A stretch of DNA of 43,865 nucleotides from Escherichia phage vB_EcolP_P433.1: the sequence record MN384978.1. The stretch is one strand, 5' to 3'. The notes under the pieces are model-generated. The model did no database searches. It saw only the letters and a list, made by a program, of their open reading frames with translations, and had not been told where the DNA came from. The position numbers were made by a program, and so were the translations under genes. Positions 11,214-40,442 of this stretch are shown here, piece after piece; within the stretch, counting starts at the first letter, position 1, and each line of letters opens with the position of its first letter.

Positions 11214-11515
11214 TAATTATCCTCTTTTGTAAACTGAATGATCTTGCCACTAGATGCCTCTCGGATAGCCTTGAGACGCTTAGATAGCTTGGACTCTTCC
11301 TGCTGTGCAGCAGGTGTAGCTGTAATTCCATTATCAAGAACCCACTTACACATGGCACCAATGTCCTTACCGGATACTAAGTGTAGTGCTGCATCTGGGT
11401 CTTCTTCTATAGTGTCCAGTATTGCCTGTGCTTTCTTATTAAAGATCTTGGTAATAGCACCATGCAGAATGCCAACCTCATCTTCTGTAGCTGCATGTTT
11501 ATTGTGTACGCTCAC
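11213..11515 (-). CDS. terS: putative terminase small subunit (100 aa)
   Basis: Assigned by position between holin and terL as in T7 (gene 18); GTG start with AGGAGA RBS; no motif-level support. Confidence 0.5.
   Translation of the reverse strand: MSVHNKHAATEDEVGILHGAITKIFNKKAQAILDTIEEDPDAALHLVSGKDIGAMCKWVLDNGITATPAAQQEESKLSKRLKAIREASSGKIIQFTKEDN
11402..11424 (-). promoter_or_regulatory. weak phage-promoter-like sequence CAATACTGGACACTATAGAAGAA inside terS
   Basis: Matches the consensus from -13 to +6 but diverges at -17 to -15; lies inside the coding sequence. Confidence 0.4.
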
Positions 11516-11693
11516 GTTTATCTCTCCTAGCTTTGTATTTTACATAAAACCAATCGCCAATTTGTAATACAGTATAAATGAATGTAGCTATAAGAACCCA
11601 ATCATTCCAACTGATACCGAGGAAGTACCCACCTGAGACTAATGCAGGTGGCGCAAGCTTCACACCACTATCTACCAGTTCGGAGTTAATCAT
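11499..11693 (-). CDS. holin, T7 gp17.5-like (64 aa)
   Basis: GISWNDWVLIATFIYTVLQIG resembles T7 gp17.5 (GLSLNEWFYVAAIAYTVVQIG as remembered); single transmembrane helix with a basic C-terminus; same position as T7 gene 17.5. Confidence 0.7.
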   Translation of the reverse strand: MINSELVDSGVKLAPPALVSGGYFLGISWNDWVLIATFIYTVLQIGDWFYVKYKARRDKRERTQ

Positions 11694-11701
11694 TGCACCT
11701 C

Positions 11702-12664
11702 CTATGCAGTAATCACGTTAACAGACATGTGGCAAGCAGGTACACCCTCAGAGAAAGTAATTACACTACCATTAATTTGATATGTAGACATAGGTTGGAA
11801 TAACCCATCTAAGTACACATCAATGTGCTTGAATGCCACTCCTAAGTTCACTTCAGTAGTGCCTTCCTCTAAATCTTTATTGAACTCGATGAAGGCATTA
11901 GGTGCTGAGGTTGCAGTGCGACTACCAATAAGTACGTAGACTTCTGTGCCTCGCATAAGTGGTTCAGCAAAAGTAATAGTGCTATTAGCCACAGTAACAG
12001 CCTTGGCTAGTTCATGCTGCAAAACACCATTCAGGTACACTAAGGCATCATCAAAAATATAAGGTGGGCGAATTACAGTCTCGCCACCTGCCGCAGTAGT
12101 AAACCAAGGTACGGTTCGGTGTGCAATACCAGAGGTCATGCCTGCTTTCAATCCAGCAATAGCCAAATCTTGCTGGTTGTTCCAGTCTGTATGCTTCTTG
12201 TCAATGGCATCAAGTTGTCCCAAGTTGACTGCATCACCCGGCTCTGTGCCATCTGCAAGGTTTGTAATCTTATTACCACCCCATGACACGTTCTGCTTAA
12301 CGAAGTAGCCTTCTGGGTAAAACCCATCTAGAATCTCTTGGGTTATCTCTAGGATATGAATAAAGGAGCCATTTAAGGACTTCATATCCAGAGCAACACC
12401 GCGGTCAAACTCTGCATATGGGTACTCCTTTTGCACCACCCTTCGAATGCGGAACTTCAAACCCTCAACTGGTGCTACATCAAAAGTAATCTGGTGTGTG
12501 CCAGATAATTGCCAACCAGATGTGATCTCTTCCCAAGATCCAGCTTGGAAAAATTCTACTGTCACATCTGAGGCACGAAGATAACCTTTCTCCCTACCAG
12601 CAAAGCTAAAGGGATAGGTGACTTGCGTACCATCTGCTGTGTGTTCTGTGAAAGTATAACTCAT
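11702..12664 (-). CDS. tail-fibre adaptor protein with T7 gp17 N-terminal-like domain (320 aa)
   Basis: Motif GGNKITNLADGTEPGDAVNLGQL typical of podophage fibre N-terminal domains; follows the internal virion proteins; too short to be a full fibre, so probably anchors the two tailspikes. Confidence 0.7.
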   Translation of the reverse strand: MSYTFTEHTADGTQVTYPFSFAGREKGYLRASDVTVEFFQAGSWEEITSGWQLSGTHQITFDVAPVEGLKFRIRRVVQKEYPYAEFDRGVALDMKSLNGSFIHILEITQEILDGFYPEGYFVKQNVSWGGNKITNLADGTEPGDAVNLGQLDAIDKKHTDWNNQQDLAIAGLKAGMTSGIAHRTVPWFTTAAGGETVIRPPYIFDDALVYLNGVLQHELAKAVTVANSTITFAEPLMRGTEVYVLIGSRTATSAPNAFIEFNKDLEEGTTEVNLGVAFKHIDVYLDGLFQPMSTYQINGSVITFSEGVPACHMSVNVITA

Positions 12665-15600
12665 CAGTCCTCCAATAAGTCTACACTGGCTTTAGTCATC
12701 TGACCTACACCAATAGTATTTGCCAAAGGAACAAGGCGACGCACCTTGTCCACCAATTGCCTCGTAGATACATCATCATCACCACTGGCATACTTAACCA
12801 GTGCTTGTGACAAATTAAATGTATCACCGATTACGCCAGCACCCGCTACCAAATCGCCGAATCCTTGCTGACGGAAACCCATACGTCCAGGTGCTTGCAT
12901 CATAGCGTCAGGCATTAACCCAAAGGTGGCCAAAGCATCACCAGCAAGACCAAAACCTGCAACTTGTGGTAGTTTATTAAAGACACCCATAGCGATGTTC
13001 TGTGTCTCAAACTTGTCCCTCAAGAACTTGTCTCTGTCTTCCCGACCTATTGCTTGCATCTGCATCTGTAATGCATAAGATGCATAACCTAGCAAGGTGG
13101 ACCATGCAAGTATCTGTGCAGCCTTAATCTTATCACCTCGTAAATCATGGATTAACTGTTTCTCAATAGAGACAATAGAGAATGACTTAAACTGTGTTAA
13201 TGCCTTTCCCCACCATTTATTCATCCAGATACCTTCGTCGCCGATGAAGTTACGTTGAATAAGACGACCTGACATTCTTCGCACAGCAACACCCACTATC
13301 TCTCTCAGGTCTGGCTCCATAGCATCAAAGTTCATCATACGAACCTTTTCTCCATTGTACTCAGCGTACAGTGGGTTATCATCAAAGTGACGTTTAAGTC
13401 TCTTCATGACATCTTCGCTCAGGCCTACCTCTTCAAGGTCTGCTTTAGGTAATTGTCGCTCACCCATCAAGTGTTGCTTTAGTCTCTTGTTGATAGAGCG
13501 AGCTACAATTTTCTCTGAGCCACCTTGTACTGCTTTAAACCCAGAGAGAACCGTGTTGATTCGACTACCCATAGATAACCCATTATCTATAATAGCAGAC
13601 AGCTTACCTAGGTTATCTGCAGTTTCTCCAAACTCATCATGACGAACGTTCCATCCTGTGAGCCAGTTATCCTCTCCTATATAACCTAAGAGTTCCTCCA
13701 TTTCTCGCAGTTCAGGTTCAAGCAATTCACCTTGAGCCGTGCCACCCTTACGGGCCGCTCTTGAACGTAAGAACTTCGTGGCAGGTACAGACTTCAGCAC
13801 AGTGCCTAACCCCATCTTAGAGATTGCACGTGCCAGTTCTGGTATCTGAGCGAAGCCCATCTGCCCTAATCGTAACAATCCTGTAATCTCACGGACACGT
13901 CGAGTGCCCCTGACAATCCCAGAGTTAGGGTCGGCGTCAATAGTGTTACCGTAAATTAGTTTAACGGAATCTCTGAGCATCTCTGCTTCAGCCCTAAGCT
14001 GTTTGATTGCCTTAGCATTTGACCCAGCCATATTGCGACCTGCGCGTTCTGCGGCATCTATTGCATTCAGCACAGATTGGCGAGTAGGGAAACCCATGGC
14101 AGCCAATGCAGCGCCACCTGCCGCCTCTTTGCCGTAGTTCTCAGCCAACTCTCCTACGTTGGTGTTAAGTAAATCCTGCACCTTCAAACCACCGTATTCG
14201 GCTTGCGTATTAATACCCATGCTAGCTTTAGCTCGATTCGATACTGATTCAGCCATTTCTGCTAATTCCGTGCCTTCAATGAAATTATCAATGATGTGGT
14301 CCGGTACTCCTGCTTTCTTCAGATCCTCAATTAGTTGAGCCTGTTGCTGCTGAGACACCACTCTATCGAATGCAACACGGCTAGAGAGAGTAGAGTCAGA
14401 TGCGCGAATATACTGTACCTTGGCTAGTGCATCCGCAGCTTTCTTACCAAGTTTGTACTTGCCTGTCTGATAACCTTTAGATAGCAAGTGAATGACAGCT
14501 TCACTGCTACCTAACTTGTTAACTGCCTCCGTAACCTTGATACCATCATAGATAACTGGAATATAATCTTTAGCTGATTGCACATTCTCGAATCCATGCT
14601 CACCTGCTTGCTTACGAAGCTCTAGTGCTTTCTTGAGCTTATCTGCGATACCTTCGGCTGCAAGTTTAACACCACGAGGTGTATCTTCTGGTATGCCACG
14701 AACAATTGCGGTATAAATCTGATTATTGAAATCTCGTGTAGTTGCAGGGTTAAGATAGTCTACCGCACGTAGGTTGTTATCTTTGATGTATTGAGAGAAG
14801 CCATCATTGTACCTATTACGTTCGGCATGACGGATAAGGTTGCCATACACATCTGATAAGATAGAAGCTGTCTTACCTTGATATGCACCACCTTGAGCAT
14901 TTTCAAGCAAACGAAGACCCAGACCTCTGAACACAGGGTTTTCTGAGTTAAGAATTACAGAAGACACTGAACCTAGGCCTTTAAGATTAATAGGCCGCAC
15001 CTCTGACTGGTATGCTTCTCGTGCCAAGTCATCCATAAGTTCTTCCAGATTTTTAGATAAGTCAAACTGTTCACCTGCAATATCTGAACCTTCAACACGT
15101 TTAGCACCAACAGAGTCGTCTGCTCGTTGCTTAATTGCATCTTCTGCAACTTGTTCAGCATGTGTTTCAGTAGGTGTTTTCTTACGTTCGGCACGGAGTG
15201 CATCTACTACATCGCGCACTGCACGTGACATCTCCACCTTACGTGCTGGTGCGTCTAAACCCAGTTCCTTTATTTGAGCCTCACGAGACAGTGAAGAGAA
15301 CCTTTTAAGTTCCTCCTTGGCCTTGCCTACGTTATTTATACGAGACAACTTAGCATTCAACTCATCAAGGCGAGCTTGTAAATCTGCCAGTGGTTCATCA
15401 AACCTACGTGCTAATGCTTTCTTCTGAACATCCAAATCCAATCTGTCAGCAGCAGATTTAGGCGCACCCTTAGCAGCGGCAGCTTCTGCTACAGCATCTA
15501 TTTTCTTCCCTTTGAGTGTTGCTGCTTCTGCTTCAAGTTGACGTATCTGCTTCTTCAGTTGCCCTTTCTCACTAGCACTCATTCTTACCGACGCATTGGC

Positions 15601-16467
15601 CTTCAAGTTGTCTGTATGAGAGAGAATTGCCATGTCTGCATCTACCTCTCTCGCACGAAGTGGTTCGTAATTACGAGCAGCCATATAAGCATCATACTCC
15701 ATAGCCTCCCGTACAGCACGAGCAGCAGATGAGTCAAATTCATCAGCACCTTTTACTACAGTATCTAAGTCATCAATTACAGTATCTGCTTGTTCTGTAG
15801 CTGCACGAGATCCAGCACTGGATATGCGCTCCCTAGTTAAAGCACCAATAGTGCCACCCATGATCATACCAAAACCAGCGGCAGCTAACACATCGTCTAT
15901 CCCTCGCTGGTAATCACCCTGTGCCAGTACCGCCTCTAGTGCGGCATTTTCAGCACCTGACAGAGCAGCAGTCTTGATAATTCTACCCAGACGCCCTACT
16001 TTGACAGCACCAGCTACAGGCGCAGCCACGAGAGAGGCAGCCCAACCTACAGGGTCAAGGATGCCAGCAGCAATCTGCGCACTGAAGCCTGTGAAACCAT
16101 TACGTGCTAAGATGTCTGCCCTGTCTTTATCAGCAGCAGCATTAGACATACGGAATTGCAACTCTTCTGGAGACTTCACATCCTTAACTATGTCTTTAGC
16201 TATTTCATACCCATACAACTTAGATAGTTCATCTTTAGTTGACTCAGGTACTTCATAACCTTCTTGTTCAGCAAACTCTGTAGTGTGACGCTCATAGGCA
16301 CGTTGTCCACCATACAACGCCCACTCACTTTCTAGTGCTGTTTGAAATACTTTATCCTTGGACCTCTGCGCTTCAGCCTTGCGCTCGGCCTCAGCAACTT
16401 GAGAGAAGGTAGGCGGTAACTTGCGTTGAGTCACCGCCACCCAGTTTTGGTTAATACTATCAACCAT
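12664..16467 (-). CDS. large internal virion / ejection protein, gp16-like (1267 aa)
   Basis: Size and position match T7 gp16; Ala-rich with long predicted helical segments. Confidence 0.7.
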   Translation of the reverse strand: MVDSINQNWVAVTQRKLPPTFSQVAEAERKAEAQRSKDKVFQTALESEWALYGGQRAYERHTTEFAEQEGYEVPESTKDELSKLYGYEIAKDIVKDVKSPEELQFRMSNAAADKDRADILARNGFTGFSAQIAAGILDPVGWAASLVAAPVAGAVKVGRLGRIIKTAALSGAENAALEAVLAQGDYQRGIDDVLAAAGFGMIMGGTIGALTRERISSAGSRAATEQADTVIDDLDTVVKGADEFDSSAARAVREAMEYDAYMAARNYEPLRAREVDADMAILSHTDNLKANASVRMSASEKGQLKKQIRQLEAEAATLKGKKIDAVAEAAAAKGAPKSAADRLDLDVQKKALARRFDEPLADLQARLDELNAKLSRINNVGKAKEELKRFSSLSREAQIKELGLDAPARKVEMSRAVRDVVDALRAERKKTPTETHAEQVAEDAIKQRADDSVGAKRVEGSDIAGEQFDLSKNLEELMDDLAREAYQSEVRPINLKGLGSVSSVILNSENPVFRGLGLRLLENAQGGAYQGKTASILSDVYGNLIRHAERNRYNDGFSQYIKDNNLRAVDYLNPATTRDFNNQIYTAIVRGIPEDTPRGVKLAAEGIADKLKKALELRKQAGEHGFENVQSAKDYIPVIYDGIKVTEAVNKLGSSEAVIHLLSKGYQTGKYKLGKKAADALAKVQYIRASDSTLSSRVAFDRVVSQQQQAQLIEDLKKAGVPDHIIDNFIEGTELAEMAESVSNRAKASMGINTQAEYGGLKVQDLLNTNVGELAENYGKEAAGGAALAAMGFPTRQSVLNAIDAAERAGRNMAGSNAKAIKQLRAEAEMLRDSVKLIYGNTIDADPNSGIVRGTRRVREITGLLRLGQMGFAQIPELARAISKMGLGTVLKSVPATKFLRSRAARKGGTAQGELLEPELREMEELLGYIGEDNWLTGWNVRHDEFGETADNLGKLSAIIDNGLSMGSRINTVLSGFKAVQGGSEKIVARSINKRLKQHLMGERQLPKADLEEVGLSEDVMKRLKRHFDDNPLYAEYNGEKVRMMNFDAMEPDLREIVGVAVRRMSGRLIQRNFIGDEGIWMNKWWGKALTQFKSFSIVSIEKQLIHDLRGDKIKAAQILAWSTLLGYASYALQMQMQAIGREDRDKFLRDKFETQNIAMGVFNKLPQVAGFGLAGDALATFGLMPDAMMQAPGRMGFRQQGFGDLVAGAGVIGDTFNLSQALVKYASGDDDVSTRQLVDKVRRLVPLANTIGVGQMTKASVDLLED

Positions 16468-16501
16468 GGTACCTCCTAGTTAATGTCATTCATAAAGGCA
16501 T

Positions 16502-16517
16502 GTCTCACATGTGAGAC
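16502..16517. repeat. palindrome GTCTCAC-AT-GTGAGAC (18-bp perfect with flanks)
   Basis: Read directly; lies between the stop of the 981-aa gene and the RBS of the 1267-aa gene, flanked by the conserved GTTATACTCAAGG and CCTTTATGAAT boxes. Confidence 0.6.
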
Positions 16518-16534
16518 AAACCTTGAGTATAACA

Positions 16535-19480
16535 CTAGCTCAGTTTAATCCTACCAATCTGAGCATTAGGCACTAATGCGCCTTTCTTTGGAGGATACAC
16601 TTGCATCCATCCATCTTTACCAATCTGGTTGTAGATAGACTTATTAACGAATGCCTCTGACATTTGACCAGAGAACTTGACATACATAGAGCCATCCTCT
16701 CGTGTTTCCACTTCACTAATCTTAGGGACTGCACCACCGCTCTGTGCTAGGTTGTAGGCCTCTGCTCTGCGTACTAAAAGGGCCGGACTACGTTTACCTT
16801 CTGTGGATGCAGTAGATAGCATTTCGATGAACCCATCTGTAAACTTTCCAGCCTTGAATGCGGCGTAAGCCTTAGGTGCATTTTGGATACCACCTTTGCC
16901 TAAGTTATAAGATAAATCCATCAACCCACGTTGCACACCTGGATGCATGTCTTCAAAAGACACAGCCCAGCCTGCGGTACTAGGCACGTGGCTTTTCAAG
17001 TCTTGTTGCAGTAAGCGCATAGCGCGTTCAGGGGTTAACTGCGACTGTCCCGGATTGAATGGAACTTTGTCTGTACCAATCATAATGTACCCGTTCTTCT
17101 TCTCTTCGTCCGTAAGGAAATGACCATACCCTACAGATTGACCGTGTGCATCTTTGTAAGGTGTATAAACACCAGCTACTCTGTCAAAACCCACATTGGC
17201 ACTGTTCTCAGCTTTGGCTACATAATTATAGAAGTCCATATTATTCCTCTTATACCCAAACTCAAAGTTTGCTGGTAGGTTCTCACCTGATGCAAAGGCT
17301 GGTGACATTAAGAAGTCAGCAATCCCACGTGATCCTACAGTTTTGGCTGTAGTCTTTGCAGGCGGTTGTGCTTGGTATCCACCTGCACCCCACATCCTCA
17401 TTTGCTGTGCTTCAAAATTCTTACGCCCCTCATCCCGTGATTTAACTTCTGCATCATACCGTTGCTTAAGTAAGGATTGCCCTTTGATTTCAGACAAGGG
17501 CATTGCCTGTGTAACAGGTACACGACCAGAGCCTGCACGTATGGTAAAGAGTCCACGCTGCGCATCTACATCAAAATACAAATCCCCTTCTTCTAAGCCG
17601 CCTGATGCATCAAGAAGTGCTTGCTTGTTGTTATCCATATATTGACGTAGTGCCAGAGGCAGGTCGTTCTGGTTTACTCCTATAGTGTCACCTAATGTGC
17701 GAACATCACCTTTCACCAGAACACCTTGGGTAAAGAAACCCTCAGATAGCTGTGTATACTGGCTAGTCAAGTAGGATTTAAGATGACGTTTAATCGTGTC
17801 ATTATTATGGCCTGCAACCTTCATTGCTCTCGCAATTGTACTGGCTTCCTCCAGCATAATGTCACGACCCATCTCGCTCATGTTATCTCCACGAGTAAGC
17901 CAACTACCCCCTGCCACATCACTGACAACCCCATCTACATCCTCATTCAGTTCTTTAAGTACAGAACCTTGTAGTCTCTCTCCGCGAGAGGCATTCTGTG
18001 CAAACTCGATAGCTTGACCTGCATTATACCCCATGCGAGTTGCTAAGTCGTAGTTCTCTACAAAGGCATACTCCTTATCTCCCATGACAGCACGACGTGC
18101 ATCTTCTGGGATAGAGTCACGCGCTCGCATAATAGTCTGTAATGCTTCAGGCTCAACCTTCATATCTTTAAGGTTGGCAGAGGATAACTGCATAAGCGAC
18201 GAATATCTTTCCTTAATGATTGGGTCTTCAATAAGTTGTTGCCCCAGTTTAAGATAACGCATCTGCTCGTACCTACCACGAATAGCTTCAGCTTGTTCTC
18301 CGGTTGCACCAGTGCGGGCAATTTCATCTTCTGCCAACTTAGTATAAGTGGTAACTAATGCCTCTGCGTAAGCCTTCCTGTCATCTTTGCTAATGTCCTG
18401 CAAACCTAGAGGGGAGTCAGATTCTCCTCGTTTAATGAGGTCTTCCAGTTTTGCTGCCTCTGCATTAACCTTAGCTTGCCTATCGAAGATAGCTTTGATT
18501 TCACTATCAGACCAAGCAGTACCCCCGGTCAACTCATTGTGATTCTGCATTACCTGAAGTAACTCTTCACGAGTAAGTTGCCCTGCATCGAATGCCTTTA
18601 TAGCAGCATCCTTCTTCTCGAAGAGGGCGACCTGATTCTGTGCAGCCCAAGTCCTATTAGCTTGAATTTCTCCAGTTTGCAAAGCACCAACACGGTCGTA
18701 CAAAGAGACACCCTTATCATCCACCAGTGCTTTGGTGCCCTGAATAAGACTATCATCTCCTACTGCCGCCCTATCAGATGCAATCTTAGCAACCATTTGA
18801 TCAAACTCAGGTTTACTAAGACCCATTGCCAGTGCTTCTTTTTGTAGCTGAATGAGTGCTGCACCAGTGGCATCAGGTGCTACATCCTTTGTAGCCATGA
18901 TAATACGAGCCTGCATAGATTGCATACGCGCTTCTTCTTCTTGACGAAGTTTAGCCTCTGCTCTCGTAGCGGTGATTCGAGGTTGCTGCTCCATGAACGC
19001 GTTAGTGACAATCCTCATAGAATCCTTGTCACCACGAAGCTCTGGATAGCTTTGCCACAATCTATTTTGTACCTCATTACGAGATTGAACTACATAGTTT
19101 TCCCAATCTTCGTCACTGCCTTGAAATCGCTGTGCTTCTGCCTGTAGAGCAGCTGTCTGTGCGATTACATCATTTTGCAAACTAACCAGCATATGAGCAC
19201 GAGCACCACCTACTGTTGCATCCTCAGATGGCACCATACCAGATAATGCCCTGTCCATCTGGCGTACCTTATCTTCCTCAACCTTCTGATTAAGGATTCC
19301 AGTAGTAACATCAGCTACACTACTAGCTGCTTGAATAAGGTCTTCGATAAATCTACTACCGGAGTTAGAAGCCACGCCAGCATCAACACCACCCACTTGC
19401 TGGGGTGCAAAAGTCATGACATTAGGGGAAGTAGCCCGCACTTGTGGCAGTCCTTGTACTGCTTGTCTCTCAATTGCCAT
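16535..19480 (-). CDS. internal virion protein with C-terminal lysozyme-like (T4-lysozyme/GH24-type) domain (981 aa)
   Basis: Around aa 750-910 (about 16750-17235) the segment AENSANVGFDRVAGVYTPYKDAHGQSVGYGHFL matches the T4 lysozyme catalytic region (E...YKDTEGYYTIGIGHLL); position corresponds to T7 gp15. Confidence 0.7.
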   Translation of the reverse strand: MAIERQAVQGLPQVRATSPNVMTFAPQQVGGVDAGVASNSGSRFIEDLIQAASSVADVTTGILNQKVEEDKVRQMDRALSGMVPSEDATVGGARAHMLVSLQNDVIAQTAALQAEAQRFQGSDEDWENYVVQSRNEVQNRLWQSYPELRGDKDSMRIVTNAFMEQQPRITATRAEAKLRQEEEARMQSMQARIIMATKDVAPDATGAALIQLQKEALAMGLSKPEFDQMVAKIASDRAAVGDDSLIQGTKALVDDKGVSLYDRVGALQTGEIQANRTWAAQNQVALFEKKDAAIKAFDAGQLTREELLQVMQNHNELTGGTAWSDSEIKAIFDRQAKVNAEAAKLEDLIKRGESDSPLGLQDISKDDRKAYAEALVTTYTKLAEDEIARTGATGEQAEAIRGRYEQMRYLKLGQQLIEDPIIKERYSSLMQLSSANLKDMKVEPEALQTIMRARDSIPEDARRAVMGDKEYAFVENYDLATRMGYNAGQAIEFAQNASRGERLQGSVLKELNEDVDGVVSDVAGGSWLTRGDNMSEMGRDIMLEEASTIARAMKVAGHNNDTIKRHLKSYLTSQYTQLSEGFFTQGVLVKGDVRTLGDTIGVNQNDLPLALRQYMDNNKQALLDASGGLEEGDLYFDVDAQRGLFTIRAGSGRVPVTQAMPLSEIKGQSLLKQRYDAEVKSRDEGRKNFEAQQMRMWGAGGYQAQPPAKTTAKTVGSRGIADFLMSPAFASGENLPANFEFGYKRNNMDFYNYVAKAENSANVGFDRVAGVYTPYKDAHGQSVGYGHFLTDEEKKNGYIMIGTDKVPFNPGQSQLTPERAMRLLQQDLKSHVPSTAGWAVSFEDMHPGVQRGLMDLSYNLGKGGIQNAPKAYAAFKAGKFTDGFIEMLSTASTEGKRSPALLVRRAEAYNLAQSGGAVPKISEVETREDGSMYVKFSGQMSEAFVNKSIYNQIGKDGWMQVYPPKKGALVPNAQIGRIKLS
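17675..17697 (-). promoter_or_regulatory. SP6-type promoter CATTAGGTGACACTATAGGAGTA inside the internal-virion-protein gene
   Basis: Identical to the SP6 consensus from -15 to +1 (TTAGGTGACACTATAG), unlike the other promoters here which carry CTG or CCG at -12 to -10. Confidence 0.5.
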
Positions 19481-23344: not shown

Positions 23345-23354
23345 GAACCCTCCT

Positions 23355-24652: not shown

Positions 24653-24675
24653 CCCTTCTATAGTGTCCAGTAAAT
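24653..24675 (-). promoter_or_regulatory. phage RNAP promoter ATTTACTGGACACTATAGAAGGG (capsid promoter)
   Basis: Read as reverse complement; lies between the scaffold and capsid genes. Confidence 0.8.
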
Positions 24676-27152: not shown

Positions 27153-27362
27153 TCACACCTTCAAGCTAGAAGCTACCGGACGGACAAGGCCGCGCTTACC
27201 TTTTGCAGATGCAGTGGCGTCATCATCTCCTGCACCAATCTGGATATCTTCAGCTTCAGTCTCTGGCTTACGCTCAAGCTGCTGTGCTGGCACTTTCGCT
27301 TCAATACGTGGTGCATCTTGAGCAAGACCGATAGCCTTAAATGCTTTCTTTACAACACCCAT
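27153..27362 (-). CDS. small hypothetical protein (69 aa), possibly gp6.7-like virion protein
   Basis: Position immediately upstream of the portal gene; no motif evidence. Confidence 0.4.
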   Translation of the reverse strand: MGVVKKAFKAIGLAQDAPRIEAKVPAQQLERKPETEAEDIQIGAGDDDATASAKGKRGLVRPVASSLKV

Positions 27363-29487: not shown

Positions 29488-29510
29488 TTGTTCTATAGTG
29501 TCAACTAAAT
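29488..29510 (-). promoter_or_regulatory. phage RNAP promoter variant ATTTAGTTGACACTATAGAACAA
   Basis: GTT at -12 to -10; overlaps the stop of the phosphoesterase gene. Confidence 0.6.
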
Positions 29511-30536
29511 CTTACCAATCCAACGATTGTCACTATTGGTTTGCATCGGGACGATATGAGGTACACCCTCCAGAATAACAACACAACCTAATGCTGGCTT
29601 GTACTTAGATTCGCGCCCATAGGCAAATGCACGAGATGATTCGTCAATTAGACAGCCGCCCTGCACAGCCCAATATTGCTCATGAGTATTACGTGCATAC
29701 TCCACAGACATCTTACCATGCAAGTGACCACACACTAGATTCATACGCTCATGCGCTGCATCTGCTAGGACAGCGCCAGCAGGTTGATGCTTGAATGCTA
29801 CCTGTTCGCCATTCGGCAACTCAAGTACATGCGTATGCTGCCAATCCCACTGATCACCACCTCCCTGCGGGAAGAACACTTCTCGGTATGTACGCAGATA
29901 CTGCACAGGGATGCCTTTGGCGCTTGCCTTACGGAAGTGCATAGAGCCGTGATTAGAATGACACAGGCGCATTACAGGGAACATCTTGTGCAGCTTATGC
30001 ATGAAGACACGGGCCTTCTCTAATTCCATACCAGCGCTATCCAGATTGGGATCCGAGTCATGGAATGACAGGGCATGTTTATCTGCCTCATCACCTAGAT
30101 GAACTACAGTATCTGGACGATAACGTGCTGCCACTGCTGCAAGGAACTCTAAGGTGTCTGGATGCTCATAGGGTGCATGAGTGTCAGGGATTACCAGTAC
30201 ACTTCGATGAGGCGAGTCAGGCAATGGTACAATAGCCAAATCCTCATAGCGGTCAGGAGTCCTGAGCTTACGCTTTTCTTTGATACGCTTATCTTCTTGC
30301 AGAAGGGTCTGGTAATAATCACCATTCTTCTTGGTCTTCTTGAATTGACCATGCCAGTATCGAGCCAGCTGGCGGGTGATCTTCTTACCCACAGGGTGAC
30401 ACGATAATACTCGTGCCATCTCATTATAGTTAACATTACCTTTCTCGTCGGTAGCTTGCTCGATTGCATCAAGTACCTCGGAGTCTTTGTACAAGCTGCG
30501 AAGCTTACCCAACTTTAACCTCCTTCTTTCTTGCAT
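29505..30536 (-). CDS. calcineurin-like metallophosphoesterase (start uncertain)
   Basis: Motifs VIPDTHAPY, HLGDEAD, SNHG and GHLHG fit the D-x-H / GD-x-x-D / GNH signature; the track ORF reaches 30644 and overlaps endonuclease VII, so the start is tentatively placed at ATG 30536. Confidence 0.6.
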   Translation of the reverse strand: MQERRRLKLGKLRSLYKDSEVLDAIEQATDEKGNVNYNEMARVLSCHPVGKKITRQLARYWHGQFKKTKKNGDYYQTLLQEDKRIKEKRKLRTPDRYEDLAIVPLPDSPHRSVLVIPDTHAPYEHPDTLEFLAAVAARYRPDTVVHLGDEADKHALSFHDSDPNLDSAGMELEKARVFMHKLHKMFPVMRLCHSNHGSMHFRKASAKGIPVQYLRTYREVFFPQGGGDQWDWQHTHVLELPNGEQVAFKHQPAGAVLADAAHERMNLVCGHLHGKMSVEYARNTHEQYWAVQGGCLIDESSRAFAYGRESKYKPALGCVVILEGVPHIVPMQTNSDNRWIGKI

Positions 30537-32675: not shown

Positions 32676-32698
32676 CTCTTCTATAGTGTCCAGTAAAT
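32676..32698 (-). promoter_or_regulatory. phage RNAP promoter ATTTACTGGACACTATAGAAGAG
   Basis: Read as reverse complement; preceded 16 bp upstream by the palindrome at 32714-32729. Confidence 0.75.
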
Positions 32699-32713
32699 AC
32701 CGGACACCGATTT

Positions 32714-32729
32714 GTCTCACACGTGAGAC
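32714..32729. repeat. inverted repeat GTCTCAC-AC-GTGAGAC
   Basis: Read directly; begins 1 nt after the stop of the 72-aa gene and ends 16 bp before the promoter. Confidence 0.6.
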
Positions 32730-32730
32730 T

Positions 32731-32949: not shown

Positions 32950-32958
32950 CCTTTCTCC

Positions 32959-33765: not shown

Positions 33766-33950
33766 TTATTTAGTCTCCTATTGTCAGTTAGCTTTGTACT
33801 GAGCACAAGCATGTACTCACTAGAAAGCCCGATATAGTATCGGGTTGTGCAAGATGCACAATAAGGTTCAACGCTTTACAATCATAGGACGTGCTTAGGC
33901 TTACGCTCACTGAGCACCTTGGATTTACTGTCTCTGACAAACCCACCCTA

Positions 33951-33973
33951 TTGTTCTATAGTGTCCAGTAATT
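33951..33973 (-). promoter_or_regulatory. phage RNAP promoter AATTACTGGACACTATAGAACAA
   Basis: Read as reverse complement; overlaps the 3' end of the 125-aa ORF, upstream of the SSB-like gene. Confidence 0.65.
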
Positions 33974-34349: not shown

Positions 34350-34413
34350 ATTTATATCTCCTATATTTACTTAATTACCTATACTACCTTATAAACCTAG
34401 ATTACCTAGGCTT

Positions 34414-34436
34414 TCCTTCTATAGTGTCCAGTAAAT
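34414..34436 (-). promoter_or_regulatory. phage RNAP promoter ATTTACTGGACACTATAGAAGGA
   Basis: Read as reverse complement; about 70 nt downstream of the DNA polymerase stop. Confidence 0.75.
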
Positions 34437-34504
34437 CATGTTAGACAAAATAAGTGGGAATAAGTTATTCATAAAGGCCACCCGTAAGTGACCTTGAGTA
34501 TAAC

Positions 34505-37051
34505 TCAGTGTGTTTCTTTCCAGCTTGCACCTATCTTATACTCGCCTGCCATCGGGCAACGCATCTTCAGATACTGCCCTGCCCAAGTCATGGCGTCGGC
34601 AATGATATGCCCTGCACGGTGATAACGCCGCTGGCAATGAAGTACACCAGCAGTAGCATCAACACTAACGAGATTTGCAGCAGACCACATACGTCCCTCA
34701 GAATCCACATGAACACGTTTCTCCTCTGCATCGAACACTGCTTTCACAGCGGCCTTCTCTGTTTCAAAACCCTCTAAGGTGAAAGGCAGGTCGTAGTTAA
34801 GATACAAGACCTCTTCTTCAGGAACCTCCATCTGGATTTCATCATGCACGTTAGCTACACCACAAGGGTTTCCCATACTATCTAAGGCCACACCTTCCTT
34901 GCGCATAACTGCAAATGCCTTGACTAATGCGTATTTCATACACAAAGAACCTGTCATCTGGAGTAATACGTTAAGCATAGTGTGCTCTTTAAGTTCACCA
35001 CCAGACATACGGATGCGACCCCAATGCCCATCAGGTGCTTGTAGGTAGCCAAACTTGTTACCTTGTGCAATAACATTCTCGCGAAGACGTGCAAGGGATG
35101 GTAGTTCAATCTCAAATCTTGCCACAACTTCCTTCATTTCTTCCTCAGTAACACCACACACTGCTGCAAGGTTTGCTATACCAGAACCATAGAGGAAAGC
35201 ATATATAAATGTTTTCGCCATATCACGCTTAGGAAGCCCAGCCTTCATCTGGTTATGCGTATGTATATCACCATGCAGTACAATATCTTGGTATTCAGGG
35301 TCATTCATGAAGTGAGACAGCACACGTAGTTCAAGACCTGCACCATCACAACCTAGGATTAGCTTACCTTTACCTGCTATGAATAAATCACGTAAAGGAT
35401 ACAAGCCACGGGCAGGAATATTAACCACGTTACGATGACGCATACGGAACGTAGAAGTGCCAATACTAATAGCAACAGCTGGAACACGCCACTCTCCATC
35501 ATCCTTATCTGACGTAGGCCAGTGTCCATACCTTTCGTAGTATTGCTGCGCATTGACTCCTAGCTCCTTGTTAAATGCTACAGGTACAAGGCCACGACAC
35601 TTTCGTACACCAGCCTGCGAGGGCCACGTTCCTTTCTCGTTGAAGGCTTCAACGTCACCACGGTTGAGTATCTGACCACGACGGGATACGAGTATGTACC
35701 ATGCAGCGATACCCAAGCACCAATCAGGGACTGTTTTACCTTCACGTGCGGCTCTTTCTTGCCATAAAGTAAGGGACTTCTCATTTATCTTACCACTCCA
35801 AGGCTTAGGTAGGACACCATTTTCATCAAGGTATGCTTGCTCTGTGTCGTTGAACTCCACACCTTTCCATCCATAGTCATAGAGCACTTGCTTAACGGTG
35901 TCACGGTTTCCCAAGGGAATCTCTTCAAACGTAACGGGACTGTAAGCGCCAACCCACTTGATGCTTGGCGTGTCATTACGGTTTCCTCTAAGGTGAGGGA
36001 AATCTTTCTTGACAGAAGCACTCCAATCTCCAGACTTAGTTGTGACAGACCATACAGTCTTCCTATCTCCACGGCGCTCCGCATGTAGAAAGTGTGAGGG
36101 GTCGAGTACAGTTGGGATATTATTGTTTCTTCCATACTCATTTGCTTTTTGGCAGGTTTCATTCTTTTCTTCCGGTTTAAAAGGTTTAGACTTGATACGC
36201 ATAGGCATGTGCGGACGGAACGCTGCGACTGTCTCATCAATCTTAGCGTCCAGTTCTTCGCATCGCGCTAATGCCTTGTCGATATCCAGACGGAAGCCAC
36301 GCTCGGCCTGACGGCTCATCTCCAGCGCTACAATGGACTCCATGTGGAAGGCTGTCTCAATGCCTAGGCCAGTACGTTTATTCACGCCACGGCGTTTGTG
36401 CTCCGTCCATTCCCCATTAAATAGCCAGAGGAATAGGTCACGACCAATCGCCACGTCCTCACGTACGCGATGCACCATGTGGTCGGTCAGTTTAGACCAA
36501 TCTTCGTTCTCCGGCTTATAGCGGCCTATACGGATGCCGTGCGCCTCAATTGAGTGAGGGGCAACGTTACCCATACCTTTGGCATAAGCCTGAGGAGGGA
36601 GGCGTCTATCGGGGTTTAACAGGCGGCTCATGACCAGCGTATCCATGACGCGTACCGGACACAGGTCAGCACGGAGTCTGCCCTTGCCGCGCTTCTCGGT
36701 ATAGTTAAAGCCTTTCCAGATATCAGGGAATGCTTTCTCAAAGAGAAGCCCGTCATACCCTAGGAAGTTCTGTGACACGATAGCTTCACAGTGCTTCAGG
36801 AAGTTAACGCCGTCAACTAAGTCACCATCTTGATGCCCTTCCCACTCCTTCAGGCGTTCTCTTGCTTCAGGGTCACGCATCTCATATGGGTCAAAGAAGA
36901 GGAATTCCTCAGTGGTGAGCAAGTCCATGCAGCAAATGATGTGCACATCTTCGCGGTGTCCATATCGGATAGCATCAAGAAGACCCTTAGCCTCCGCATC
37001 CATTACTAGGATGCGGCCTTCTGCTTCCTTCTTCCAATCAATAATCTTCAT
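34505..37051 (-). CDS. DNA polymerase, family A with 3'-5' exonuclease domain (848 aa)
   Basis: Exo motif VMDAEAKGL; polymerase motif A GCDGAGLELRVL, motif B KTFIYAFLYGSG, motif C VHDEIQMEV, all close to the T7 gp5 equivalents. Confidence 0.9.
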   Translation of the reverse strand: MKIIDWKKEAEGRILVMDAEAKGLLDAIRYGHREDVHIICCMDLLTTEEFLFFDPYEMRDPEARERLKEWEGHQDGDLVDGVNFLKHCEAIVSQNFLGYDGLLFEKAFPDIWKGFNYTEKRGKGRLRADLCPVRVMDTLVMSRLLNPDRRLPPQAYAKGMGNVAPHSIEAHGIRIGRYKPENEDWSKLTDHMVHRVREDVAIGRDLFLWLFNGEWTEHKRRGVNKRTGLGIETAFHMESIVALEMSRQAERGFRLDIDKALARCEELDAKIDETVAAFRPHMPMRIKSKPFKPEEKNETCQKANEYGRNNNIPTVLDPSHFLHAERRGDRKTVWSVTTKSGDWSASVKKDFPHLRGNRNDTPSIKWVGAYSPVTFEEIPLGNRDTVKQVLYDYGWKGVEFNDTEQAYLDENGVLPKPWSGKINEKSLTLWQERAAREGKTVPDWCLGIAAWYILVSRRGQILNRGDVEAFNEKGTWPSQAGVRKCRGLVPVAFNKELGVNAQQYYERYGHWPTSDKDDGEWRVPAVAISIGTSTFRMRHRNVVNIPARGLYPLRDLFIAGKGKLILGCDGAGLELRVLSHFMNDPEYQDIVLHGDIHTHNQMKAGLPKRDMAKTFIYAFLYGSGIANLAAVCGVTEEEMKEVVARFEIELPSLARLRENVIAQGNKFGYLQAPDGHWGRIRMSGGELKEHTMLNVLLQMTGSLCMKYALVKAFAVMRKEGVALDSMGNPCGVANVHDEIQMEVPEEEVLYLNYDLPFTLEGFETEKAAVKAVFDAEEKRVHVDSEGRMWSAANLVSVDATAGVLHCQRRYHRAGHIIADAMTWAGQYLKMRCPMAGEYKIGASWKETH

Positions 37052-37190
37052 ACATTAACTCCGTTTCAATTTGGTAATCAGGGATTTCACGATTATCTCG
37101 CGGGTCAATGTAATGAAATTCTGTGTTAACTTCCCGCGATTCAATTTCATCACGTAGTTTAATGAGGTCTTGCATAGTAAATTTAGTCAT
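37038..37190 (-). CDS. possible small protein (48 aa, MTKFTMQDLIKLRDEIESREV...) overlapping the DNA polymerase start
   Basis: Not in the ORF track; ATG at 37190 preceded by GGAGGT RBS; overlaps the polymerase start by 14 nt. Confidence 0.35.
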   Translation of the reverse strand: MTKFTMQDLIKLRDEIESREVNTEFHYIDPRDNREIPDYQIETELMYEDY

Positions 37191-37221
37191 TTGATACCTC
37201 CAATCAATATGATGAAAGGCT

Positions 37222-37237
37222 GTCTCACGTGTGAGAC
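37222..37237. repeat. inverted repeat GTCTCAC-GT-GTGAGAC (18-bp perfect palindrome 37221-37238)
   Basis: Read directly; starts about 10 nt after the stop of the 68-aa gene, preceded by GTCAAGG and followed by GCCTTTCAT. Confidence 0.6.
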
Positions 37238-37247
37238 AACCCTTGAC

Positions 37248-37454
37248 TTATCGACTGCGTGTTACAGTTAATTTCTGGCCCATGTATTTACCTTGGTGTG
37301 GCTCCCAAGTTGCCTCCTTGATAACCTGTTCACGCGTCAGGCTATTCTTCTTTGCTTCAGCCATAGTTAACTGTGCAAACAGGAAGGCTTGGTTGGTAAT
37401 TTGCGCTTGCAGGTCTTCGTGACCATCAAACATCTTAAGGCTGTGTTTAGACAT
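37248..37454 (-). CDS. hypothetical protein (68 aa)
   Basis: ATG start at 37454 overlapping the end of the upstream ORF; no motif support. Confidence 0.4.
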   Translation of the reverse strand: MSKHSLKMFDGHEDLQAQITNQAFLFAQLTMAEAKKNSLTREQVIKEATWEPHQGKYMGQKLTVTRSR

Positions 37455-37701
37455 AAGAGATTGCTACCTCTACTTTACTACCTTCCCAATGACCGTGACC
37501 ACCATCATTGCTTAGTGTAGTGCCTACACCCCAGCCAATACCATTATCGTTCACATAAATAGTTCGACCTTCTTGATAAGATACAACAAAGACCATGCCT
37601 TTAGCGTTAAAACTTACAATACGCATACGGCCTTTAAATGTGCCACGACGTAACTGCTTCTGAGCACGCTTGATACAGCGTTTGATTGCACGTTGTTTCA
37701 T
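37447..37701 (-). CDS. hypothetical basic protein (84 aa)
   Basis: AAGGAG RBS before the ATG at 37701; Arg/Lys-rich N-terminus. Confidence 0.45.
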   Translation of the reverse strand: MKQRAIKRCIKRAQKQLRRGTFKGRMRIVSFNAKGMVFVVSYQEGRTIYVNDNGIGWGVGTTLSNDGGHGHWEGSKVEVAISYV

Positions 37702-37711
37702 GATTAACTCC

Positions 37712-38377
37712 TTAAATATTCACGTAGGTTTCTTCAGTAACGATAGGGCAATAGACTAGGTGAGCTTCATTGACAATGAAGCCAAGTAAACCCTGCTTCT
37801 TGATAATGTGATTAACTATAGCTGCAAAGTTCTTATTAGCTACATTACGAGGCGCACCCTGTTCTGTGATTGCATGGTCAATATCCATGATTCGCACAGG
37901 CACATTCGGATGCATCATAGCTTCGCCAATCTTCACCATAGCTTGCCCTGTGGATTTACCTAATGCACGAGTATTAAACTGTGTAACACCTAATGCAGTG
38001 CCACATAGCTTAATCATTTCACTTTGAGTCTTACCAGTGACTACATTGCGTCGCTCTTTCTTGAGTGTGGTGCGTGTACTACTCATAGGGTTATTGGAAG
38101 AGTTAAATACTTTCAACATCTGACTAGTGCAACGCGCACACACATGAGATTCGTTGACACTGTGTGTACAGGTGCATTGATGTGTTGGGTCTTCCACCTT
38201 CTCAAGGTATTTATGGACACAGGATTTAATGTAACCCTCTTCTACTTGGCTTTGTTGGTAACGAATATAGTATAAGTCCTTTGTTTTACTAATGACTACA
38301 CCTATCTCACGTTTGTGGTTGGAATATTTGTTTATGTTACGAACTTTGTCACCTACATTCAATACTAATTTATACAT
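37712..38377 (-). CDS. hypothetical protein with Cys/His zinc-ribbon-like motif (about 221 aa)
   Basis: HQCTCTHSVNESHVCARC cluster; start placed at ATG 38377 with GGAG RBS (track start is TTG). Confidence 0.5.
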   Translation of the reverse strand: MYKLVLNVGDKVRNINKYSNHKREIGVVISKTKDLYYIRYQQSQVEEGYIKSCVHKYLEKVEDPTHQCTCTHSVNESHVCARCTSQMLKVFNSSNNPMSSTRTTLKKERRNVVTGKTQSEMIKLCGTALGVTQFNTRALGKSTGQAMVKIGEAMMHPNVPVRIMDIDHAITEQGAPRNVANKNFAAIVNHIIKKQGLLGFIVNEAHLVYCPIVTEETYVNI

Positions 38378-38416
38378 AATCAATCTCCAGTTATTTAATG
38401 TACTTAATAAGAGCCT

Positions 38417-38432
38417 GTCTCACGTGTGAGAC
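38417..38432. repeat. inverted repeat GTCTCAC-GT-GTGAGAC with extended arms
   Basis: Read directly; about 20 nt after the primase-helicase stop; the transcript could form a stem of about 11 bp. Confidence 0.6.
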
Positions 38433-38453
38433 AAGCCCTGATAAATACACTAA

Positions 38454-40442
38454 TCAGAACTCACTTTCTTCATCGAAGCCGGTCTCTTCTATAGTGTCCG
38501 GTAAATCCGGTACTTCTTGTTGCCTTGCTTCCCCTGTATCAAATGACTTAGTACGGGCTTGTGGTTCCATTAAACGTCCGGTTTGAATGTCACCCTTAAG
38601 CATGACCTTGGTTCCAGTGTAGATACCTTGGTCGCGGTCTTTGACACATGAGATGTACGTGGTAGTCCTTTCATCAAGCGTTTCAGCTCTTGTATTACGC
38701 TCAATCCCCAAGGCGTAAGATGCCCAGAATCCGATAGCACCTGAGCCTCGGAAGTCAGAAAGGATAACTTCGCCACCTTCTTCGTGCTGGACTCGGTTTC
38801 CCGCAGGGCGAGTAAGGTGCGAGACAAGGAATATAGTAACTGGGTGTCTGTCTTTGATAGTACCAATCCGCTTGACGCATTCATCAAGTGCACCAACCTT
38901 CCCACCAAAAGCACGCTCATCTAATTTAATCCCCGTTAAGTTATCAATGATGATATTAGAAATACCCATAGCCTCAAACTCAAGGCAAGTCTGCTCTACC
39001 TTCTCCATTGAGTAGTCACCTTCTAGGTCAGCTACGAAGAGCTTCCCTGTATCAGCGACATAGTCAATGGCAGCATTAGCTTCTTCCTCAGTATAGTCGA
39101 ACACCTCGCGGTATCCATCTTCTTTCGGGTCGTTGGTTGGCGGTAGTTCAATACGCTTATCAATCCACTTGCCGATAAAAGCACGAGACACTTTGACCAT
39201 CGGGTCTTCTGTAGAAATAATGCCTACGGATTCACCGTGTTCTTCGATGAGGTGCTTAACCACTTCACGGAGGAACTCAGTCTTACCTACACCAGAGCCT
39301 GCGCCTACAATGATAAGCTGGTTCTTACGGATACCTAGCGTTACTTTGTTCAGCTTAGGCCAAGGCCATGACAGCCCTTGCTCTGGTCGTGCGGCCTTAA
39401 GTTTATCCCTTTGAGATGCAATAGATTTAATCTGGCTACCAAAGACTTCATCAGACGACTTGGCATTAAACCACGCATCTACAAATTCTTTAGCCTTGCC
39501 AGCCATCAATGCCTTATTGGCATCTTTGCACCCAGAAGGGTACTCAAGAATATAGGATTTGCCGGGAAAGAGGCGAGCCGCTTGTTGGTTCTGCTTCTGC
39601 CCTACTTCATCCCCATCGAAGCCCCAAATAATCTTCTTGAATTGGGCGATGTGTTCACGGTTCTGCACAATCTCTTCAAGGCAAGATTCACCCTTATTAA
39701 CAGACCATACGTGGTAGGGCTGGCCTTCCCACTTAGTGCCTTTGGCAGAATCAAGGAGCATCTGTTGTGCTGCTAGTGCATCAAGCTCTCCGCCTACAAT
39801 AAGCAAGCAATCCTTCCGTCTTCCCTTGTCTAACACGTGAGACAAAGTATTCATACCGAAAAGATCTTGCATACCAAAGAGCTTACCTAGGTGACCAAAC
39901 TTAAAGTCTTTAGGTAAGGTACGGCACTTAGCGCCTACTAGCTCACCTCTCTCGAAGCGTGGATAGTAATGCCGTGAGACTCTACCCTCTTCATCGTGTC
40001 CGACACGTACATCATACAATGCGCAAATGTCGCCGCGAATGTGTCGGGAAACAAGATTCTTACGCTTAAGCGTGAGGAACCATTCAACATCAAGTTTCCA
40101 CTCTGCTTCTTGGTCTGCCCTTTCTTGCTCATTCATGACCTCCCAACGGTCTTTCATACGCATACCACCAAGTGCGATGGCTCGCAGCTTAGGGTCGCTT
40201 ATCTTCCCTTCCCTCTCCATCTCTTTGAATTGAGAAGGTGTGTATTTTATGTTGCCAGTAATAGGCAACTCGGTGATCTCGATACCGCCGTCTGGCTTGT
40301 GGTAGTATGGCTTGCCATTATCATGGAAGTGACCACGGTTACAATAGCCAGCACCATCATCAAATATCATGAGATGGTTGCCGGATTTATCGTGTCCATT
40401 CTTCTGGCAAGCAGGGCACGGGATGTTATTAATAATAGCCAT
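38454..40442 (-). CDS. DNA primase-helicase, T7 gp4-like (662 aa)
   Basis: N-terminal zinc ribbon CPACQ...YCNRGHF; helicase Walker A GAGSGVGKTEF; acidic C-terminal tail ending in Phe (...TGFDEESEF) as in T7 gp4. Confidence 0.9.
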   Translation of the reverse strand: MAIINNIPCPACQKNGHDKSGNHLMIFDDGAGYCNRGHFHDNGKPYYHKPDGGIEITELPITGNIKYTPSQFKEMEREGKISDPKLRAIALGGMRMKDRWEVMNEQERADQEAEWKLDVEWFLTLKRKNLVSRHIRGDICALYDVRVGHDEEGRVSRHYYPRFERGELVGAKCRTLPKDFKFGHLGKLFGMQDLFGMNTLSHVLDKGRRKDCLLIVGGELDALAAQQMLLDSAKGTKWEGQPYHVWSVNKGESCLEEIVQNREHIAQFKKIIWGFDGDEVGQKQNQQAARLFPGKSYILEYPSGCKDANKALMAGKAKEFVDAWFNAKSSDEVFGSQIKSIASQRDKLKAARPEQGLSWPWPKLNKVTLGIRKNQLIIVGAGSGVGKTEFLREVVKHLIEEHGESVGIISTEDPMVKVSRAFIGKWIDKRIELPPTNDPKEDGYREVFDYTEEEANAAIDYVADTGKLFVADLEGDYSMEKVEQTCLEFEAMGISNIIIDNLTGIKLDERAFGGKVGALDECVKRIGTIKDRHPVTIFLVSHLTRPAGNRVQHEEGGEVILSDFRGSGAIGFWASYALGIERNTRAETLDERTTTYISCVKDRDQGIYTGTKVMLKGDIQTGRLMEPQARTKSFDTGEARQQEVPDLPDTIEETGFDEESEF
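38484..38506 (-). promoter_or_regulatory. phage RNAP promoter ATTTACCGGACACTATAGAAGAG inside the 3' end of the primase-helicase gene
   Basis: CCG sub-class at -12 to -10; lies within the last codons of the helicase ORF. Confidence 0.6.

Follow-up and report, generated by a model that had tools for sequence, protein, structure and literature searches.

Promoter sequences inside three genes of the Vectrevirus-like Escherichia phage vB_EcolP_P433.1 differ in age, conservation and probable activity

Escherichia phage vB_EcolP_P433.1 (record MN384978.1; the whole stretch of 43,865 nt that was analysed is referred to here as the window) carries about 12 promoter 23-mers for a phage RNA polymerase (RNAP), every one on the minus strand, which is the gene strand. 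Three of these lie inside open reading frames (ORFs): site A in the small terminase gene terS, site B in the gene for a 981-aa internal virion protein and site C in the last codons of the primase/helicase gene. The explanation that we favour, and hold with some confidence, is that site C is an ancient working promoter, that site A was born within the Vectrevirus lineage and that site B is a fossil or weak promoter. Intragenic promoters are already known as a feature of T7-supergroup phages and no new kind of element is described here; the added value of the comparison is that three such sites can be sorted into working, lineage-specific and fossil.

Results

The embedded sites and the promoter set of the window

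A first-pass annotation of this DNA had listed promoter matches inside ORFs at 11402-11424, 17675-17697 and 38484-38506. All three were found, on the minus strand, and the start positions that it proposed (11407, 17680 and 38489) are the +1 G of the 23-mers; it was also right that the copy at 17675 is the only SP6-type (AGGTG) copy in the window and that 38484-38506 is a consensus copy in the last primase/helicase codons. The sites and their host genes are listed here, with scores from a position weight matrix (PWM).

38484..38506, minus strand: site C, predicted promoter ATTTACCGGACACTATAGAAGAG, +1 at 38489 (consensus match, PWM 37.2, clade covariation)
38454..40442, minus strand: primase/helicase gene, host of site C (ORF, annotated homologues, acidic C-terminal tail ending in Phe)
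11402..11424, minus strand: site A, predicted promoter CAATACTGGACACTATAGAAGAA, +1 at 11407 (exact core, PWM 26.7, codon choice)
11213..11515, minus strand: small terminase gene terS, host of site A (Pfam PF11123, DNA_Packaging_2, 1.8e-16)
17675..17697, minus strand: site B, promoter-like 23-mer CATTAGGTGACACTATAGGAGTA of SP6 type, +1 at 17680 (exact core, PWM 15.1)
16535..19480, minus strand: 981-aa internal virion protein gene of SP6 gp36 type, host of site B (PHROG 4290, 'lysozyme domain-containing protein')

The genome in the window is that of a Vectrevirus-like (K1-5/SP6 group) podophage in circularly permuted form; all its long ORFs are on the minus strand and the record starts at the end of the gene-6 homologue. 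In BLAST it grouped with the SP6/K1-5-like podophages (Autographiviridae, Molineuxvirinae). Identity to K1-5, K1E and other Vectrevirus genomes is ~91% over the early and middle half; for the late half, identity is ~87% to the CrRp3/CC1/R4596 subgroup and ~75% to SP6.

Each promoter spans 23 bp, from -17 to +6, with the core GACACTATAG and G at +1, and the exact 10-base core is present in A, B and C. This core has 11 exact copies in the window, on the gene strand only, plus one degenerate copy at 40818-40840, and a consensus search allowing up to three mismatches returned seven matches against 0.00 expected. The PWM was trained on eight clearly intergenic copies and controlled with 30 codon shuffles; the training sites scored 33-40 and the shuffle maximum was 13.6, a range in which site C falls among the training sites and sites A and B lie below them. 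At the specificity bases (-12 to -8), C (CCGGA) and A (CTGGA) are of the resident type and B (GGTGA) is of SP6 type, and natural variants such as GTTGA exist at these positions among Vectrevirus promoters. The AT-rich upstream element (-17 to -13, ATTTA or AATTA) reads ATTTA at C, CAATA at A and CATTA at B, the last two being off at -17. Conservation in relatives combined with change alongside polymerase specificity was found for C, in four groups; A is kept within Vectrevirus, and B does not show this behaviour.

Site C in the helicase tail

Site C comprises helicase codons 646-653 of 662, within the last 17 codons, and encodes DLPDTIEE. The promoter consensus of each phage was derived from over-represented words in its own genome, and in all four specificity groups compared the helicase tail spells the promoter of its own clade, with the amino acids changing accordingly.

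Vectrevirus tail: GAT TTA CCG GAC ACT ATA GAA GAG, DLPDTIEE, promoter ATTTACCGGACACTATAG
SP6, Kenya-K11 and K1-ULIP33 tail: GA(A/T) TTA GGT GAC ACT ATA GAA, (E/D)LGDTIE, promoter TTAGGTGACACTATAG
Proteus phage PM116 tail: GAA TTA GAG ACC ACT ATA GAA GAA, ELETTIEE, own promoter AATTAGAGACCACTATAG
Klebsiella phage BS375 tail: CCA ATA GTG GCG GGT ATA GAA GAG, (E)PIVAGIEE, promoter CAATAGTGGCGGGTATAG

The BS375 copy is one mismatch from its own consensus GGCGAGTATAG. This pattern implies that the helicase protein has been repeatedly rewritten to keep a promoter in place. The helicase of phage NIC06P3 has a different tail with no promoter in it; there the promoter persists downstream of an inserted HNH endonuclease gene (~17913-18400), with the TAG of the promoter core forming the stop codon of the HNH gene and the old helicase tail codons (LPDTIEETTFDDEQEF) left downstream as non-coding sequence. 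Among close relatives, the eight codons of site C contain one synonymous change against a gene-wide mean of 6.5, which is in the lowest 2%. Taken together, covariation, survival outside the helicase ORF and low synonymous change identify site C as a real, ancient promoter that, to judge from these comparisons, is kept at the nucleotide level.

The predicted transcript from site C would start 33 nt before the helicase stop codon, pass through a hairpin and reach the GGAG-ATG of the next gene at 38375.

38405..38445, minus strand: strong hairpin just after the helicase stop, in the 5' leader of the predicted site C transcript (-35 kcal/mol, z = -3.6)

In K1-5 the copy of site C has a C-to-T change at -7, but gene 10, which follows the helicase gene, still contains an embedded promoter (FADTIEG, same frame, 9010); promoters embedded in this gene are also found in other Vectreviruses and in SP6 (9112). 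The window lacks this gene-10 promoter (~37820-37850, minus strand, in ORF 37712-38383) and reads FAAIVNH there. The reverse arrangement in the window and K1-5 suggests that the closely spaced site C and gene-10 promoters are redundant.

The similarity between NIC06P3 and the window begins exactly at promoter C, beside the inserted HNH gene, and T7 promoters are known to act in origin function. Both points would suit a reading in which the embedded promoters are mainly RNAP-primed secondary replication origins, or short conserved sequences for module recombination, to which we nevertheless attach very little probability. The late module has its mosaic breakpoint near 19190 and not at site B; no AT-rich origin-like tract was noticed after A, B or C, in an analysis that included no search aimed at such tracts; and a role in replication or recombination would be additional to the promoter role rather than a replacement for it.

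Site A in terS

Site A comprises codons 31-38 of the 100 codons of terS (peptide AILDTIEE), lies 194 nt upstream of the terL start codon and departs from the promoter consensus at -17 and -15 only. In 17 distinct Vectrevirus terS sequences the segment is GCN ATA CTG GAC ACT ATA GAA (AILDTIE), with the promoter intact in 15 and altered by a single base in the other two (GAT in L026, GGC in L029). The 13 sequences from other clades encode AILD(A/S)IE through ordinary, variable codons (ATC CTN GAT GCN ATC GAG), and the SP6 peptide at this position is AILAAVEE. From this codon difference it follows that the origin of site A took about seven nucleotide changes, along with a switch from Ala to Thr, in a peptide that was already pre-adapted, and that the site was then held fixed. 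The comparison marks site A as a promoter specific to Vectrevirus and, by the same token, kept at the nucleotide level.

In K1-5, site A is the only own-type promoter from the capsid promoter to the end of terL, a stretch of 12.6 kb, and this isolated position points to a late booster role. Its most likely effect is a higher level of transcription of terL and of the genes that follow.

In all three embedded sites GAC ACT ATA is read as Asp-Thr-Ile, and the shared frame GAC-ACT-ATA-GAA (Asp-Thr-Ile-Glu) is explained by the TAG stop that one alternative frame would contain. A single reading frame and a DTI tripeptide common to all copies could also arise if (L)(G/P)DTI(E/G) peptides happened to use promoter-like codons and no site were used as a promoter, and the Vectrevirus LL11, where the site B peptide has been kept while the DNA drifted, is in keeping with such a coding by-product. 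This is nonetheless highly improbable as an account of the sites: given the peptide and the genome's own codon usage (ATA makes up 15% of Ile codons), the observed codon choice has a probability of ~2e-4 per site, and the chance expectation of consensus matches is 0. Moreover, a by-product would not predict that the helicase tail changes its peptide to spell the promoter of each clade, that NIC06P3 retains the promoter outside the helicase ORF, or that terS of other clades encodes a near-identical peptide with ordinary codons.

Site B in the internal virion protein gene

Site B comprises codons 595-602 (TLGDTIGV), in which TLGDTIG is spelled ACA TTA GGT GAC ACT ATA GGA. Around the site, amino acid identity is 83% to SP6, 78% to K1-ULIP33, 65% to PM116 and 30% to the K1-5 allele. 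The site mismatches the preferred bases of the resident polymerase at -12 to -10 and has G at +2, giving GGA at +1 to +3; SP6 RNAP prefers GAA at these positions (PMC7429497).

41120..43771, minus strand: single-subunit RNA polymerase gene (98% identical to K1-5 RNAP, 85% to SP6 RNAP)

The RNAPs of K1E and K1-5 are likewise 85% identical to SP6 RNAP, and the K1E capsid promoter is experimentally active with K1E RNAP (PMC6412113). At the position aligned with T7 Asn748 the window RNAP has Ser and SP6 RNAP has Arg; every Vectrevirus RNAP has this Ser with Glu six residues on, where SP6 and others have Arg and Asp. Asn748 of T7 RNAP reads bases -10 and -11, the bases at which site B is 'wrong'.

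Site B is intact and of own type in the SP6 clade, as CGCTAGGTGACACTATAGG, and intact but of foreign type in nine CrRp3-type Vectreviruses and in PM116, all of which have other promoters of their own. L012 (AGC ACT), BS375 (GAA GCA CTC), K1-ULIP33 and L015 (both GAC GCT) have broken copies, the last two although they use SP6-type promoters (L012 and L015 are IMG genomes), and the site is absent from the K1-5-type allele. In LL11 the site has decayed through two synonymous changes (GGA GAT) that leave the peptide TLGDTIG unchanged. Synonymous variation over the motif is at the gene average (58th percentile), and across clades there is no covariation of site B with RNAP type. Since it neither tracks the polymerase nor is protected at synonymous sites, site B is best read as a fossil; a weak promoter is the most that it is likely to be.

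Arrival of site B with a horizontally acquired late-gene module was dropped as the only option, because the gene is 80-84% identical to that of SP6 at the amino acid level and the RNAP 85%, so that vertical descent, with K1-5 carrying a replaced allele, is an equally good fit. No terminator above shuffle expectation was found when the surroundings of sites A and B were scanned. Separately, a variant core GACGCTATAG, altered at -6, occurs in the tail tubular B and gp36-like genes of two phages that use SP6-type promoters (K1-ULIP33 at 27167 and 30316; L015 at 8626 and 11778).

Several observations weigh against the explanation that we favour for the three sites. The synonymous-site count at site A falls at the 12th percentile, a modest support on its own, so that the case for A rests mainly on the fixed codon difference between clades. 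Site B is intact in nine of the ten CrRp3-type Vectreviruses examined, and PM116 keeps four of its five core codons at 65% protein identity, a retention beyond that expected under neutral decay. Both G at -12 and T at -10 are tolerated in natural Vectrevirus promoters (for example ATTTAGTTG), the conserved Vectrevirus promoter ATTTAGTTGACACTATAG (AGTTG) differs from site B at -11 only within the block from -13 to -9, and a perfect SP6-type promoter is present between genes in NIC06P3; given these tolerated variants and the NIC06P3 promoter, the resident RNAP may use site B to some extent. Finally, the literature searched contained no transcript 5'-end or in vitro data for SP6-like phages, including Vectrevirus and Zindervirus, and for this reason we infer whether A, B and C are active, and the relative strengths of the embedded promoters, from comparative evidence.

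An active site B would require the K1-5-type polymerase to cross-recognize an SP6-type sequence. The transcript, of ~1.18 kb and covering the last 381 codons, would then end or be processed at the hairpin at 16502-16517; with the in-frame ATG at 17239, it would supply a separate lysozyme-domain protein as well as more mRNA for the following gene. We consider this unlikely. The core of site B is perfect from -9 to +1, its GGAG at +1 to +4 recurs in two intergenic promoters of the window, and its near match to ATTTAGTTGACACTATAG and the SP6-type promoter of NIC06P3 would speak for activity, as would a Shine–Dalgarno (SD)-like AAGAGG with an ATG where the lysozyme-like region begins, shared by the SP6 and CrRp3 clades, and a conserved structured element after the 981-aa gene. 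These points are countered by the synonymous loss of the core in LL11, the core substitution in K1-ULIP33 as a user of SP6-type promoters, the lack of covariation with RNAP type and a specificity-loop residue unlike that of SP6. In addition, the internal ATG is absent from K1-ULIP33, L015 and PM116, a dedicated M15 endolysin is already annotated in these phages, and the PWM score of site B is the lowest of the three and barely above the shuffle maximum.

The lysozyme-like region

The first-pass annotation had proposed that the distal, lysozyme-like part of the gene, or the genes beyond it, might be served by a transcript of their own from the copy at 17675. It placed this region roughly correctly, as PHROG endolysin matches cover residues 771-933 of the 981-aa protein, but the region begins ~440 nt downstream of the site B start and not immediately after it. 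The separate transcript is the least supported of its claims, the SP6-type bases being a mismatch to the preference of the resident polymerase. A PDB sequence search with the 981-aa protein gave weak, non-significant GH24/T4-lysozyme matches only, and a Pfam search of the same protein found no domain.

An in-frame ATG at 17239 (minus strand; Met748) lies at the start of the lysozyme-like region, preceded by AAGAGG with its GAGG six bases upstream. This pair is kept in the SP6 and CrRp3 clades, and analogous pairs of an SD-like sequence and ATG are present in the K1-5-type and BS375 genes; K1-ULIP33, L015 and PM116 have no equivalent of the ATG. A start codon, ribosome-binding site and internal promoter that would together make a nested lysozyme gene are thus not kept throughout the relatives, the ATG being missing from these three and the promoter missing or broken in several clades. 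The gap after the gene contains a hairpin, where a transcript from site B, if made, would undergo processing or termination.

16480..16535, minus strand: two-tier hairpin in the gap after the 981-aa gene (conserved, compensatory changes in six clades)

A nested product from Met748 is conceivable, if weakly supported. The complete chain, with weak initiation at 17680, an end at hairpin 16502-16517 and translation from Met748 to a free nested lysozyme-domain protein, strikes us as very doubtful. We rank above it a version in which site B is the fossil of an ancestral late 'booster' that went unrecognized after the RNAP shift in Vectrevirus and was functionally replaced by site A, which is a possible history that we put forward tentatively.

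Other promoters, hairpins and the terL intron

The remaining promoters of the window that serve as reference are as follows.

41005..41027, minus strand: intergenic promoter after the RNAP gene (consensus match, PWM)
34414..34436, minus strand: intergenic promoter (consensus match, PWM)
33951..33973, minus strand: promoter overlapping the stop codon of the upstream ORF (PWM)
32676..32698, minus strand: intergenic promoter (consensus match, PWM)
29488..29510, minus strand: promoter with AGTTG at -13 to -9, overlapping the last phosphoesterase codons (PWM)
24653..24675, minus strand: capsid-gene promoter, the last own-type one upstream of sites B and A (consensus match, PWM)
8548..8570, minus strand: promoter overlapping the terL stop codon, next downstream of site A (PWM)
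6838..6860, minus strand: intergenic promoter before the tailspike gene (consensus match, PWM)

The promoter at 29488..29510 is kept in all Vectrevirus genomes examined. Two further candidates, 6385-6407 and 953-975, were rejected as normal promoters on account of T or A at +1. The second of these, promoter-like and on the minus strand, reads ACTCATCTGACACTATAAGAGAA with A at +1; it belongs to the early region and lies upstream of the RNAP gene, and TATAAG versions of it are kept in K1-5 (2014), SP6 (2104), K1-ULIP33 (2579) and BS375 (45465). The sites at 41005-41027 and 40818-40840 (both minus strand) form a tandem after the RNAP gene; the latter is degenerate (GACAGTATAGATAAG, C-to-G at -5), and Proteus phage PM116 has the same variant in the same place (6626). 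We take this tandem to recall the T7 phi1.1A/phi1.1B pair at the replication origin.

A palindromic hairpin, GTCTCAC-NN-GTGAGAC, has six copies in the window where none is expected by chance, and three of the six sit 3-18 nt upstream of promoters.

16502-16517, 32714-32729, 37222-37237, 38417-38432, 40846-40861 and 41032-41047: copies of GTCTCAC-NN-GTGAGAC

The copy at 16502-16517, after the 981-aa gene, is part of the two-tier stem (ACTCAAGG...CCTTTATGA), which is kept with compensatory changes in SP6, K1-5, K1-ULIP33, PM116 and BS375. The stem resembles T7 RNase III sites or the annotated SP6 terminators.

The terL gene (8569-11213, minus strand) is split by a group I intron (Rfam Intron_gpI match at 9871-10078, 63.6 bits), and Klebsiella phage K1-ULIP33 is annotated with the same split.

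10047-11213, minus strand: terL exon 1, equivalent to K1-5 TerL residues 1-389
8572-9300, minus strand: terL exon 2, equivalent to K1-5 TerL residues 390-632
9293-9826, minus strand: intron ORF of 177 aa, homing-endonuclease-like (weak GIY-YIG and NUMOD matches)

Discussion

Our preferred explanation can be set out as a sequence of events. The phage's own single-subunit RNAP would transcribe the genome from about a dozen 23-bp promoters and, because the genes abut or overlap, some of these promoters have come to be written into coding sequence. Site C would start a transcript for the downstream DNA-metabolism genes and, as RNAP specificity shifted between clades, the promoter would have changed along with it, altering the peptide of the helicase tail. 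Site A would have arisen in the Vectrevirus lineage on the pre-adapted peptide AILDAIEE, and would boost terL and beyond at the far end of a stretch of ~13 kb without another own-type promoter. Site B, a promoter of SP6 type, would have been inherited along with the internal virion protein gene in its SP6-like allele; the site no longer fits the preference of the polymerase and is probably without selection at the nucleotide level.

The late promoters vary among the clades: in SP6, B occurs without A, in K1-5, A occurs without B, and K1-ULIP33 and PM116 have none of their own type. BS375 has an own-type 23-mer (AGTTAGTGGCGCGTATAGAAGAG, 30403-30425) with one core mismatch inside the next, gp37-like internal virion protein gene. 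Over the five clades, we infer from this pattern a turnover of a dispensable booster promoter in a long late operon. The proposal that phage-RNAP promoters are present in coding sequence is borne out by the nucleotide-level conservation of C and A and does not extend to B, which lacks covariation and decays; the first-pass annotation was accurate in what it observed and partly supported in how it interpreted this.

These findings are relevant mainly to annotation and phage engineering. In K1-5-like therapeutic phages, promoters would be lost unnoticed if terS or the helicase tail were recoded or deleted, and an intragenic SP6-type match should not be called an active promoter where the polymerase is of another type. 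The helicase tail provides a clean example of dual coding, in which shifts of polymerase specificity changed the C-terminal peptide together with the promoter (LGDT, LPDT, LETT, PIVAG). Sites B and A would likewise illustrate promoter turnover, with an unrecognized copy left to decay and a new one arising on a pre-adapted D-x-I-E peptide.

Comparison with known systems

The promoters of SP6 and K1-5/K1E have the same 23-bp architecture as those of the window, with core CACTATAG, G at +1 and the same orientation. One paper counted 12 promoters in SP6 (PMC11880802), and seven SP6 terminators have been counted (PMC11347151). K1-5 has the identical site A at position 35488; the counterparts of site C are SP6 8411 and the K1-5 copy altered at -7, and that of site B is SP6 29393 inside gene 36. 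Unlike both SP6 and K1-5, the window pairs a polymerase and promoters of K1-5 type with an SP6-like allele of the internal virion protein, and it is this pairing that makes site B of the 'wrong' type; unlike SP6 and other Vectreviruses, it is also without the embedded gene-10 promoter.

Known nested genes, such as T7 gene 4A/4B and endolysins with internal starts, share with the 981-aa gene an in-frame ATG and an SD-like sequence at a domain boundary. The 981-aa gene differs in that its ATG is not present in all clades and the promoter upstream of it is probably inactive.

Among the 17 promoters of T7 are phi4C, phi4.3 and phi4.7 (PMC6938266). The window resembles T7 in two respects: its compact genome, coded on a single strand, has a promoter for the phage RNAP within the primase/helicase gene, and partly redundant promoters feed overlapping polycistronic transcripts. 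In T7, phi4c reportedly lies inside gene 4 (Dunn and Studier, 1983). The two systems differ in promoter sequence and polymerase lineage, and also in where the promoter sits in the helicase gene, the site of the window being set in the acidic C-terminal tail.

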